From NCBI RefSeq assembly GCF_046105845.1, contig NZ_CP151004.1: DNA of 64,000 nucleotides; one strand, written 5' to 3'. A program made the translations under genes and the position numbers. Positions 3,349 to 19,017 of this stretch are shown here, in pieces (within the stretch, counting starts at the first letter, position 1; every line of letters begins with the position of its first letter). The notes beneath the pieces are model-generated. The model was given only the letters and a program-made list of their open reading frames with translations, had not been told where the DNA came from and searched no databases. The stretch is from Escherichia coli (lineage in GTDB: Bacteria > Pseudomonadota > Gammaproteobacteria > Enterobacterales > Enterobacteriaceae).

Positions 3349-3446
3349 GCCGAATGCGGCGTGAACGCCTTATCCGACCTACAAAATCTTGCAAAATCAA
3401 AACATTGCAGGAGCGATGTAGGCCTGATAAGCGTAGCGCATCAGGC
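3349..3446. repeat. REP/BIME palindromic units downstream of opgH
   Basis: gccgaatgcggcgtgaacgccttatccgacctac and gtaggcctgataagcgtagcgcatcaggc match the E. coli REP consensus. Confidence 0.65.
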
Positions 3447-11547: not shown

Positions 11548-11902
<355 letters not shown>

Positions 11903-11912
11903 ATTCTTCTCC

Positions 11913-11938
11913 CGAAAAAAAACAGGGCTTGCGCCCTG
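11913..11938 (-). terminator. intrinsic terminator downstream of csgA
   Basis: On minus strand: hairpin cagggcgcaagccctg followed by T8. Confidence 0.7.
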
Positions 11939-11960
11939 TTTCTTTAATACAGAGGATGTA

Positions 11961-12416
11961 TTAGTACTGATGAGCGGTCGCGTTGTTACCAAAGCCAACC
12001 TGAGTGACGTTAACGCTGGAGTTAGATGCAGTCTGGTCAACAGCAGCACCGTTACCGCCACCGAACTGTTTAACAGTCATAGTAGAATCTTTACCATTCC
12101 ACTGATCAAGAGTAGCGCTGTTACCGAAGCCACGCTGAGTCAGATCGATTGAGCTGTCATCAGAACCTTGGCCAACATCTGCGCCGTTACCGCCGCCGTG
12201 CTGGGTAATGGTCAGATCAGAGTTACGGGCGTCAGCTTGCAGAGCAAGAGCAGAGTTACCGCCACCGTACTGGTAAATGTTCAGCTCTGAATTTGGGCCG
12301 CTATTATTACCGCCACCACCGTGGTTACCGCCGCCGCCGTACTGAGGAACAACACCTGCCAGAGCGCTACCAGAGAATACGATTGCTGCAATTGCTGCTA
12401 CTTTTAAAAGTTTCAT
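11961..12416 (-). CDS. csgA: major curlin subunit CsgA
   Basis: 151 aa, signal peptide, Gln/Asn/Gly-rich imperfect repeats. Confidence 0.95.
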   Translation of the reverse strand: MKLLKVAAIAAIVFSGSALAGVVPQYGGGGNHGGGGNNSGPNSELNIYQYGGGNSALALQADARNSDLTITQHGGGNGADVGQGSDDSSIDLTQRGFGNSATLDQWNGKDSTMTVKQFGGGNGAAVDQTASNSSVNVTQVGFGNNATAHQY

Positions 12417-12456
12417 GTAAAACCCCCATCGGATTGATTTAAAAGTCGAATAGTAA

Positions 12457-12912
12457 TTAACGTTGTGTCACGCGAATTGCCATTTGCGACTGTCTCTGCA
12501 CTACAATTGCCGTTTTTTGAGTACCATACTGTGTAATATTTGCTTTATTACCAGAACCTTTCTGGATAATCATCGCAGTATTACCATAAGCACCTTGCGA
12601 AATACTGGCATCGTTGGCACTGCCCGCCTGATCAATATATGCAAGGTTATAATCTCCTGTCTGGTCAATCTTTGCCCGATTGCTACTACCTTCTTGCGCA
12701 ACAACCGCCAAAAGTTTTGAGCCTCCCTGCCGTACCTGAGCACTATTATTAGTCCCAGCTTGACCAATTATGGCTGCCTGATTAAATGAAGACTTACTCA
12801 ATTCATTTACCGCGAAGTTATATTCTGAATTAGCTAAATCATAACCTGCTGCGGCTGCAATCCCAGGCGCACCCAGTATTGTTAACATCATAAATAACAA
12901 TTTGTTTTTCAT
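12457..12912 (-). CDS. csgB: minor curlin / nucleator CsgB
   Basis: 151 aa from MKNKLLFMMLTILG; track ORF has a 9-codon upstream extension. Confidence 0.9.
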   Translation of the reverse strand: MKNKLLFMMLTILGAPGIAAAAGYDLANSEYNFAVNELSKSSFNQAAIIGQAGTNNSAQVRQGGSKLLAVVAQEGSSNRAKIDQTGDYNLAYIDQAGSANDASISQGAYGNTAMIIQKGSGNKANITQYGTQKTAIVVQRQSQMAIRVTQR

Positions 12913-13666
12913 GTTGTCACCCTGGACCTGGTCGTACATTTAAGAAATTAAATCATTTCAACTTGGTTGTTAACGCAACCTGTATTTTGTTAACGCTGCG
13001 TTACGATGGAAAGTATGTCTGCGGAAATATTTTTAATAACTCACCCGCGCGTTGTATTTTTCTTTTTTTGTTCATACCAAAGTATTAAAACCCACGTAAA
13101 TACGCTGTTATCTACGCAAAAAAATATTTTGTTTTCTTTTAAATCTCCGTTTTCCGCAATCAAAAATCACCAGACAGCCATTCTTCTTGCCCGTCGCTGA
13201 TTGCTGCGATATGTCTTGCGCACAAGCCGTGACAAACCTCGTCTTTTTGCAGTAAAAAATTGTCCACGGAGGTGTGAAGAAAAAACAAGAACGTTTTACA
13301 TGACGAAAGGACTACACCGAAATATTTTTTATATGCATTATTAGTAAGTTAGCACCATTTGTATGATTTTTTAAAATTGTGCAATAAAAACCAAATGTAC
13401 AACTTTTCTATCATTTCTAAACTTAATAAAACCTTAAGATTAACATTTTAATATAACGAGTTACATTTAGTTACATGTTTAACACTTGATTTAAGATTTG
13501 TAATGGCTAGATTGAAATCAGATGTAATCCATTAGTTTTATATTTTACCCATTTAGGGCTGATTTATTACTACACACAGCAGTGCAACATCTGTCAGTAC
13601 TTCTGGTGCTTCTATTTTAGAGGCAGCTGTCAGGTGTGCGATCAATAAAAAAAGCGGGGTTTCATC
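12913..13666. promoter_or_regulatory. divergent csgBAC / csgDEFG control region (long AT-rich intergenic with csgD 5' UTR)
   Basis: ~750 bp AT-rich non-coding DNA between divergent csgB and csgD; known hub for OmpR, CpxR, IHF, RpoS, MlrA and sRNAs (established knowledge, individual sites not all mapped here). Confidence 0.8.
13460..13483 (+). promoter_or_regulatory. OmpR binding site of the csgD promoter
   Basis: gttacatttagttacatgtttaac direct repeat, about 185-205 bp upstream of csgD ATG, matching the published OmpR box as I recall it. Confidence 0.6.
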
Positions 13667-14317
<651 letters not shown>

Positions 14318-14321
14318 AGCC

Positions 14322-14711
14322 ATGAAACGTTATTTACACTGGATTGTGGCGGCAGAATTTCTGTTCGCCGCAGGGAATCTTCACGCCGTTGAGGTAGAAG
14401 TCCCGGGATTGTTAACTGACCATACTGTTTCATCTATTGGCCATGATTTTTACCGAGCCTTTAGTGATAAATGGGAAAGTGACTATACGGGTAACTTAAC
14501 GATTAATGAAAGGCCCAGTGCACGATGGGGAAGTTGGATCACAATAACGGTCAATCAGGACGTTATTTTCCAGACTTTTTTATTCCCGTTGAAAAGAGAC
14601 TTCGAAAAAACTGTCGTCTTTGCACTGATTCAAACTGAAGAAGCACTAAATCGTCGCCAGATAAATCAGGCGTTATTAAGTACGGGCGATTTGGCGCATG
14701 ATGAATTCTAA
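14322..14711 (+). CDS. csgE: curli secretion specificity factor CsgE
   Basis: 129 aa with signal peptide; operon position. Confidence 0.9.
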
Positions 14712-14735
14712 ATAAAAAATTGTTCGGAGGCTGCA

Positions 14736-15152
14736 ATGCGTGTCAAACATGCAGTAGTTCTACTCATGCTTATTTCGCCATTAAGTTGGGCTGGAACAAT
14801 GACTTTTCAGTTCCGTAATCCAAACTTTGGTGGTAACCCAAATAATGGCGCTTTTTTATTAAATAGCGCCCAGGCACAAAACTCGTATAAAGATCCGAGC
14901 TATAACGATGACTATGGTATTGAAACGCCCTCAGCGTTAGATAACTTTACTCAGGCCATCCAGTCACAAATTTTAGGTGGGCTACTGTCGAATATTAATA
15001 CCGGTAAACCGGGCCGCATGGTGACCAACGATTATATTGTTGATATTGCTAACCGCGATGGTCAATTGCAGTTGAACGTGACAGATCGTAAAACCGGACA
15101 AACCTCGACCATCCAGGTTTCGGGTTTACAAAATAACTCAACCGATTTTTAA
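14736..15152 (+). CDS. csgF: curli assembly protein CsgF
   Basis: 138 aa with signal peptide; operon position. Confidence 0.9.
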
Positions 15153-15178
15153 GCCCCAGCTTCATAAGGAAAATAATC

Positions 15179-16012
15179 ATGCAGCGCTTATTTCTTTTGG
15201 TTGCCGTCATGTTACTGAGCGGATGCTTAACCGCCCCGCCTAAAGAAGCCGCCAGACCGACATTAATGCCTCGTGCTCAGAGCTACAAAGATTTGACCCA
15301 TCTGCCAGCGCCGACGGGTAAGATCTTTGTTTCGGTATACAACATTCAGGACGAAACCGGGCAATTTAAACCTTACCCGGCAAGTAACTTCTCCACTGCT
15401 GTTCCGCAAAGCGCCACGGCAATGCTGGTCACGGCATTGAAAGATTCTCGCTGGTTTATACCGCTGGAGCGCCAGGGCTTACAAAACCTGCTTAACGAGC
15501 GCAAGATTATTCGTGCAGCACAAGAAAACGGCACGGTTGCCATTAATAACCGAATCCCGCTGCAATCTTTAACGGCGGCAAATATCATGGTTGAAGGTTC
15601 GATTATCGGTTATGAAAGCAACGTTAAATCGGGCGGTGTTGGGGCAAGATATTTTGGGATCGGTGCCGACACGCAATACCAGCTCGATCAGATTGCCGTG
15701 AACCTGCGCGTCGTCAATGTGAGTACCGGTGAGATCCTCTCCTCGGTGAACACCAGTAAGACGATACTTTCCTATGAAGTTCAGGCCGGGGTTTTCCGCT
15801 TTATTGACTACCAGCGCTTGCTGGAAGGAGAAGTGGGTTACACCTCGAACGAACCCGTTATGCTGTGCCTGATGTCGGCTATCGAAACAGGGGTCATTTT
15901 CCTGATTAATGATGGTATCGACCGTGGTCTGTGGGATTTGCAAAATAAAGCAGAACGGCAGAATGACATTCTGGTGAAATACCGCCATATGTCGGTTCCA
16001 CCGGAATCCTGA
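15179..16012 (+). CDS. csgG: curli secretion channel lipoprotein CsgG
   Basis: 277 aa, lipobox LLSGC. Confidence 0.95.
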   Translation: MQRLFLLVAVMLLSGCLTAPPKEAARPTLMPRAQSYKDLTHLPAPTGKIFVSVYNIQDETGQFKPYPASNFSTAVPQSATAMLVTALKDSRWFIPLERQGLQNLLNERKIIRAAQENGTVAINNRIPLQSLTAANIMVEGSIIGYESNVKSGGVGARYFGIGADTQYQLDQIAVNLRVVNVSTGEILSSVNTSKTILSYEVQAGVFRFIDYQRLLEGEVGYTSNEPVMLCLMSAIETGVIFLINDGIDRGLWDLQNKAERQNDILVKYRHMSVPPES

Positions 16013-17247: not shown

Positions 17248-17985
17248 TTAAAGGTCTGCAAATTCCGCAATCGGTGCCATACCACGAGATTCAAGGAAGT
17301 TCAGTAAGCGGCGCGGAGAAACATTCAAAATGCGCTCTGGCGGAAAATCTACCGCGTCGAGGATTTTAAGACACTCTTCAAATTCACCCATGGTAAACGC
17401 GGTGTGAGAATCCGAACCTAATGCCACCCAACCTCCAGCGTCACGTACCGCTGCGGCTACCGCACGACAGTTGTCTTCACTGCCCTTACGTGAGTGTAAA
17501 AATGAGGAATTATTGATTTCCAGCGCCACCTGATGTTTCGCAGCTGCTTCAGCAACGGCTTTAACATCTATTTCATATTTCGGATTTCCGGGATGGCTTA
17601 TTATATGCACATTGCCGCTGGCGATAGTGGCGATCATCGCTTGCGTATTGGTCGCTTTGTCATGCGGCGCAAACACCGGCTCATGAAAACCGGCAATAAT
17701 CAGATCCAGCGAATCAAACATTTTGCCACTGCAGTCAATTTCACCGTCAACATTTTTAATGTTAGCTTCGATGCCGCGCAGGATCCCTACTCCATCAACC
17801 ACTCGCGGCCAGATACGCATGTTAATGAAGTGCCAGTGATGCGGCGCATCTTCCATATCCGGGCCATGATCGGTGATCGCAAAAAGTTTAATGCCCTTTT
17901 GTTTGGCCTGGGCAATGTAATCACTCAATGTGCTATATGCATGCGTGCTAGCAACGGTATGCATATGAAGGTCGACGGGATACAT
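17248..17985 (-). CDS. ycdX: PHP-domain zinc phosphatase YcdX
   Basis: 245 aa, N-terminal HxH PHP motif ([10 protein letters not shown]). Confidence 0.85.
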
Positions 17986-18039
17986 AACTCTCTCCTGTAT
18001 TCAATTCCCGCCAAGGATAGCAGGAAACCTGATGCTTTA

Positions 18040-19017
<978 letters not shown>

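Follow-up and report, generated by a model that had tools for sequence, protein, structure and literature searches.

The csgB-csgD intergenic region of an Escherichia coli strain lacking pga-dgcT at the usual site: very probably the canonical curli control region in a common natural allele

Results

The csgB-csgD region and its genes

The 754 bp between csgB and csgD are the subject of this report; they lie in a 64-kb stretch of an E. coli chromosome, referred to below as the window (Table 1). The two genes diverge: csgB (minus strand) has its start codon at 12912, and csgD (plus strand) has its ATG at 13667. The initial annotation of this DNA had described an intact intergenic region of about 750 bp, and that description was accurate, with boundaries at exactly 12913 and 13666. 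The window runs in reverse relative to K-12: blastn against the K-12 chromosome shows that positions 1220-64000 are collinear with MG1655 from 1,115,643 down to 1,044,364, at 97-98% identity. The MG1655 counterpart (NC_000913.3, 1,103,197-1,103,950) has the same flanking genes and the same length, differs by seven substitutions, and is also given as 754 bp in a 2026 preprint. The intergenic DNA is rich in A+T (66%, vs. 50% for the whole window).

The curli genes on both sides appear sound. The seven csg ORFs all run their full length, as had been claimed of csgBAC and csgDEFG, and their translations carry zero to three amino-acid changes each relative to K-12. These are L60V in CsgB; T61A, N110D and E112T in CsgA; T3A and V24M in CsgC; S19P and S110A in CsgD; R6H in CsgE; and F60Y in CsgF; CsgG is identical. 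No internal stops were found in the csgB, csgA and csgC ORFs, and Pfam assigns a GerE domain and a VpsT-like receiver domain to CsgD. The identities and order of the genes agree with K-12 and with the RefSeq annotation, which confirms the synteny.

Table 1. Features of the curli locus and of the pga site in the window. Positions in the fourth column are relative to the csgD transcription start site (TSS) at 13519.
Feature	Window position	Strand	Relative position	Remarks
csgBAC operon	11570-12912	-		csgB 12457-12912, csgA 11961-12416, csgC 11570-11902
csgB-csgD divergent intergenic control region	12913-13666			754 bp, flanked by csgB and csgD
Candidate CsgD box CGGGTGAGTTA	13037-13047	-		125-135 nt before the csgB ATG; identical to K-12
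Substitution, window T / K-12 A	13069		-450	majority allele in the window; K-12 alone differs
Substitution, window A / K-12 T	13158		-361	within the ten haplotypes, shared only with 190693 and AF40
Substitution, window T / K-12 G	13167		-352	window has the commonest allele (7/10); K-12 alone has G, two strains have A
Substitution, window C / K-12 T	13178		-341	within the ten haplotypes, shared only with 190693 and AF40
Substitution, window A / K-12 G	13277		-242	within the ten haplotypes, shared only with 190693 and AF40
Substitution, window G / K-12 T	13352		-167	window has the majority allele, K-12 the minority one
Presumed MlrA palindrome AAAATTGTGCA-N12-TGTACAACTTTT	13373-13407		-146 to -112	upstream of the OmpR box; identical to K-12
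Variant mqsRA-like palindrome	13430-13441			window AACCTTAAGATT vs. K-12 AACCTTAAGGTT; 13439 G>A
Substitution, window A / K-12 G	13439		-80	tri-allelic (G, A, T) in the ten haplotypes
OmpR box, D1-type activator site	13460-13483	+		exact unique match; identical to K-12
-10 hexamer TAGATT, sigma-S-dependent csgD P1 promoter	13508-13513	+		6-7 nt upstream of the TSS
csgD 5'UTR	13519-13666	+		148 nt, identical to K-12; SL1 13583-13640, SL2 13657-13682 running into the CDS
csgDEFG operon	13667-16012	+		csgD 13667-14317, csgE 14322-14711, csgF 14736-15152, csgG 15179-16012
Segment replacing ycdU-ymdE-IS3D-dgcT-pgaABCD	19923-21134			1.2 kb of unrelated DNA flanked by the serX repeats and phoH
DUF2726 ORF	19929-20615	-		Pfam DUF2726, E = 3.9e-18

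The OmpR box

The 24-mer GTTACATTTAGTTACATGTTTAAC, which had been assigned to approximately 13460-13483 as the OmpR site, occupies precisely those positions. No second match occurs anywhere in the 64 kb when up to three mismatches are allowed, and 100 shuffles of the sequence gave none. The OmpR activator box itself, the 20-mer GTTACATTTAGTTACATGTT at 13460-13479, spans -59 to -40 and is centered at -49.5 when the TSS is placed at 13519. This computed center agrees with the published one, which Prigent-Combaret 2001 reportedly also put at -49.5. In E. coli, deletion of ompR abolishes curli expression (PMC12713406), and D1 is the only OmpR site that this species shows (PMC10002515). As a control, we inspected the box in an alignment of ten haplotypes (described below), and found that it is not universally invariant; O157:H7 Sakai has T>C at -53 within the box (aligned to window position 13466) and a further change, G>C, a short way upstream at -61.

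The csgD promoter and leader

Transcription of csgD is expected to begin at about 13519/13520. We place the TSS at 13519 because the published csgD leader is 148 nt long (PMC4152358). Independent support for this placement comes from the Rfam family ES056 (RF02752), whose full-length match covers 13520-13611 with a score of 119.7 bits (vs. a gathering score of 43). In the published leader, the stem-loops SL1 and SL2 extend from -83 to -28 and from -10 to +16 relative to the ATG (PMC4152358). The minimum-free-energy fold of 13519-13690 contains hairpins at 13583-13640 (-84 to -27) and 13657-13682 (-10 to +16), which match these two structures. This 5'UTR is the target of the small RNAs OmrA/B, McaS, RprA, GcvB and RydC.

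The -10 hexamer TAGATT was found one base away from the position (about 13507) at which the initial annotation had put it. Primers designed for promoter replacement in W3110 set the native -10 directly before TGAAATC, consistent with our placement (PMC5014196). The P1 promoter has no consensus -35, and a sigma-70 consensus scan of 12800-13800 did not call it, returning two matches vs. 3.8 expected by chance. Because P1 is a sigma-S-dependent promoter that also depends on activators, such a scan is uninformative there.

The whole of the sequence from 13440 (-79) to the csgD ATG, including the OmpR box, the -10, the TSS and the 148-nt 5'UTR, is identical to that of K-12, as are the csgB-proximal 156 bp of the intergenic region. 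The Salmonella-type promoter-up changes of Romling 1998 reportedly fall in the spacer/-44 region. The interval from -52 to +123, where published promoter-up types map, is unchanged relative to K-12. None of the known promoter-up alleles (the -10 type of Uhlich 2001 and the Salmonella type of Romling 1998) is present, given that -79 to +148 is K-12 sequence.

Other regulatory sites

Two further elements can be placed with the aid of motif definitions. The inverted repeat at 13373-13407 is what we take to be the MlrA palindrome; the motif of Ogasawara 2010 is said to read AAAATTGTACA-N12-TGTACAATTTT, with a footprint around -146/-113. On the csgB side, the sequence at 13037-13047 is presumably a CsgD box, and we regard it as a candidate only; Brombacher 2003 reportedly defined the motif as CGGGKGAKNKA. 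Published footprints also place RcsB at -31 to +53, H-NS over -201 to +28, and RcdA at -308 to -192. Functional data for the control region derive from K-12 and UPEC only: deletion of rpoS, mlrA, csgD, ompR or ihfA abolishes csgBA expression (PMC12713406), and ompR, mlrA and ihfA/B were recovered in a UPEC transposon screen (PMC6106082).

Substitutions relative to K-12

The alignment to MG1655 includes 754 of 754 columns and contains no indels and seven substitutions, for an identity of 99.07%. Disruptive indels in the csgD promoter had been singled out beforehand as the finding that would speak against an intact control region, and the alignment thus upholds the annotation on this point. To these two sequences we added O157 Sakai, UTI89, an O111:H8 strain and five genomes chosen across the identity range. 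The resulting ten-haplotype alignment has 36 variable columns and is invariant from -52 to +123. The alleles at 13158, 13178 and 13277 (the trio at -361, -341 and -242) also occur together in genomes that have the identical 754-bp allele, e.g., strain 1190. Each of the seven departures from K-12 is a standing polymorphism. The idea that the 13352 T>G change creates a promoter-like match at 13349-13377 was considered and rejected: TTAGCA and TTATCA both agree with TTGACA at four of six positions.

Of the seven substitutions, only the one at -80 falls in sites that have been described close to the core promoter. Soo & Wood quote a palindrome at -78, CpxR sites at -68 to -80 and -90 to -102, and an IHF site at -37 to -96 (PMC4894380). 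The -80 base is part of the right arm of the MqsA palindrome, forms the edge of the CpxR box at -68 to -80, and falls within the promoter-proximal IHF site at -37 to -96. The perfect MqsA operator pattern, AACCT-N2-3-AGGTT at -89 to -78, is not present at this site; through 13439 G>A, the right arm reads AGATT.

The exact 57-mer that carries the A allele at -80 occurs in 2001 of 5426 complete genomes (37%), vs. 1507 for the K-12 form. At least 37% of complete genomes thus have a disrupted MqsA-operator palindrome at csgD, and three alleles occur at this position.

Distribution of the allele

The region is found at ≥80% coverage in 5329 of the 5426 complete E. coli genomes, and many complete genomes are 100% identical to it over the 754 bp. 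From an evenly spaced ranking by identity, which has fallen to 99.7% by its second step, the exact allele is estimated to occur in roughly 0.5-2% of genomes. Strain 1190 (NZ_CP023386.1), O166:H15 JNE21-009 and the GPEC chicken isolates are among those with the identical 754 bp. The flanks of the identical-allele genomes are just ~99.0-99.4% identical to the window, and csgA encodes 152 amino acids in strain 1190 vs. 151 in the window.

Strain 1190 and the window share one identical run of 1722 bp (12373-14094), comprising csgB, the intergenic region and two-thirds of csgD, and a second of 1586 bp (17417-19002) at ghrA/ycdX. We considered whether the zero differences from strain 1190 betoken a special constraint on the regulatory DNA, and rejected this notion; the identical runs also cover genes, and they reflect mosaic ancestry. 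No genome among the 5426 complete E. coli genomes matches the window above ~99.4% (99.0-99.4% over stretches of 5-22 kb). The strain seems to belong to a lineage that is poorly represented in this set, or to be strongly mosaic in this part of its chromosome.

The pga site and other features of the window

The 10.9-kb segment of K-12 that contains pgaDCBA, dgcT, IS3D, ymdE and ycdU (1,086,099-1,096,961) has no blastn match in the 64-kb window. The absence of pga-dgcT at the phoH-serX position is therefore confirmed, within this one 64-kb window. The initial annotation had spoken of an apparent loss of pga. The genes are indeed missing at their K-12 position, but the site is filled by the 1.2-kb replacement, and a loss is not proven; we thus rejected a simple pga deletion as the established event, as the junction holds unrelated DNA. 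The serX-DUF2726-phoH layout occurs in 609 of the 5426 complete genomes, strain 1190 among them, and in 1040 of the 5426 pgaBC have no match at all. The same pga-less layout has been described, and other strains carry pga in other genomic contexts (Cimdins et al. 2017, PMC5635171). The missing pga-dgcT island is a matter apart: its presence or absence next to serX, a variable spot, is a frequent polymorphism that has been described before.

Several other features of this neighborhood were recorded. The tRNA-Ser gene serX (19212-19296) is followed by ~3.5 tandem copies of a ~180-bp unit that reach 19922. Each repeat restarts with the 3' end of the tRNA (aatccccccctcaccgcca), and some RefSeq genomes annotate an RtT sRNA here. 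Because the copy number of the repeat varies between strains, no genome exceeds 98.6% identity over this stretch. In phoH (21178-22260, minus strand), the N-terminal extension of the 354-aa K-12 form is broken by in-frame stops, and the 262-aa RefSeq form is intact. An Rfam match to the antisense RNA Ysr251 (194 bits, above the gathering score) lies at 21183-21376 on the plus strand, opposite the 3' end of phoH.

Toward the end of the window, the genes gfcB, gfcC, gfcD and gfcE for the export of group-4 capsule are intact ORFs at 59032-63700. K-12 has an IS1D element upstream of gfcA that the window lacks (~58587-63700). In K-12, this IS1 reportedly silences the group-4-capsule operon; the gfc operon may be expressed in the present strain. 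The initial annotation went too far in calling the strain's matrix capacity at this region curli-centered: the capsule-export genes gfcBCDE are intact in the same window, and the cellulose (bcs) genes map elsewhere.

Elsewhere, the window begins inside an IS3-family element (1-1219) located between lpxL and mdtG, with a rve/HTH_21 transposase ORF at 465-1187. The two genomes that share the element have it annotated as IS1397, and K-12 and most others are without it at this place. Between efeU and putP there is a 2.5-kb insertion relative to K-12 (26013-28558); its 447-aa ORF (27069-28412, plus strand) has no Pfam match and is annotated "hypothetical protein" in strain 1190. The efeU ORF (25048-25887, minus strand) is intact, whereas in K-12 the gene is a frameshifted pseudogene; because of this intact ORF, the EfeUOB operon for ferrous-iron uptake is probably functional. 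Two more Rfam matches exceed their gathering scores: a cspA-type thermoregulator leader in the cspG/cspH area (57415-57837, minus strand, 158 bits) and the sRNA ES036/CssrF just downstream of opgH (3383-3425, plus strand, 45.5 bits).

Discussion

In this report, we found that the DNA between csgB and csgD in the window is, with little room for doubt, the canonical divergent regulatory region for curli of E. coli, present as a common natural allele. All of the sequence-defined features by which we tested membership in this class were found, except for the disputed MqsA palindrome. The core reading of the initial annotation was right, and the annotation as a whole is partly supported; the words "complete," "loss" and "curli-centered" were overstated. 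For the first of these, the OmpR box, the -10, the 5'UTR, the MlrA palindrome and the csgB-proximal DNA are unaltered, but the mqsRA-like palindrome is broken.

From the elements identified here, a regulatory scheme may be proposed. The sigma-S form of RNA polymerase would use the weak -10 hexamer TAGATT to start csgDEFG transcription near 13519/13520. It would be helped by OmpR bound at 13460-13479, by MlrA at the palindrome spanning -146 to -112, and by IHF, whereas H-NS, CpxR and RcsB would act against it. Hfq-dependent small RNAs would then target the 148-nt leader, and the CsgD protein would in turn activate the opposite csgBAC promoter. We infer, by analogy of sequence, that these cis elements have the same function in this strain as in K-12.

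An intact cis region could nonetheless reside in a curli-negative strain, by virtue of defects outside the window or of post-transcriptional silencing, and we consider this unlikely but far from negligible. Curli formation requires many unlinked genes (PMC12713406, PMC6106082). Among these, rpoS, ompR, mlrA, ihf and the genes for c-di-GMP enzymes lie beyond the window, and natural isolates frequently carry mutations in rpoS and mlrA (PMC3874044). Further, the loss of curli and biofilm in STEC is mostly due to prophage insertion in mlrA, mutations in rpoS, and impaired motility, not to csg lesions (PMC3874044). On the other hand, the window itself offers no pointer in this direction, since the structural, export and regulatory csg genes are all open, and the identity of the region as the curli control region would be undisputed even if the strain proved to be curli-negative.

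A second question is whether the allele alters regulation, as a promoter-up or promoter-down variant acting through -80 G>A or through the lineage-specific trio at -242/-341/-361, for example toward a semi-constitutive, temperature-independent rdar morphotype. The position of the -80 base in the published MqsA, CpxR and IHF sites lends some credence to this idea (PMC4894380), as does the observation that a five-base mutation of the same palindrome arm drastically reduced MqsA binding in vitro (PMC4894380). Also, natural csgD promoter types differ in strength when placed in a common K-12 host (PMC3874044), and a 2026 preprint describes the clustering of semi-constitutive rdar isolates with csgD-csgB variants in the sites for OmpR, IHF and CsgD. 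However, MqsA is without effect on csgD at physiological levels, and its role as an operator-binding protein here is disputed (PMC6918082). Deletions of mqsR, cpxR, rstA, basR and rcdA leave csgBA expression unchanged (PMC12713406). Known promoter-up mutations fall within the -10 region, which is unaltered in the window, and the occurrence of three bases at -80 in a sample of ten strains suggests weak constraint. Given the null effect of MqsA, the neutrality of the mqsR and cpxR deletions, and the fact that the A allele is commoner than the K-12 form, the importance of the -80 change is doubtful. Indeed, the spread of the broken palindrome through the population fits the published view that the MqsA operator is not physiologically important. 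We therefore deem a regulatory variant improbable; quantitative differences from K-12 expression could arise through -80 or the trio.

A more specific form of this idea is that -80A together with -242A/-341C/-361A could alter the level or the temperature dependence of csgD in a lineage that is also without pga-dgcT. If so, a retuned control of curli would be coupled with the loss of a matrix polymer along with the corresponding diguanylate cyclase. We view this coupling as slightly less probable still.

We thus return to the canonical control region in a common natural allele as the preferred reading. To judge from its sequence, the strain would retain the complete set of cis-acting and structural elements for making curli, and pga-dgcT is missing from its customary location. 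Each of these states is common in E. coli and has been described before, and their import is mostly one of annotation. The allele of the control region, its polymorphisms and the pga-less layout are all present in public genomes and in the literature; nothing in them is new.

The corresponding region of Salmonella Typhimurium provides an instructive comparison. The csgD (agfD) promoter of that organism has the same divergent layout, the OmpR D1 site, IHF, MlrA and the dependence on sigma-S (PMC10002515). It differs in having the extra OmpR sites D2-D6, opposite effects of H-NS and RcsB, and a divergent sequence from +1 to +54; the window is of the E. coli type throughout. Within E. coli, the closest described parallels to the arrangement around the locus are the strains Tob1, Fec101 and B-8638 (Cimdins et al. 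2017, PMC5635171). Like the window, they lack ycdT, the pga operon and IS3 in the phoH-csgG interval, and they keep serX, ghrA, ycdXYZ and the curli operons; those strains were studied for their semi-constitutive rdar morphotype.
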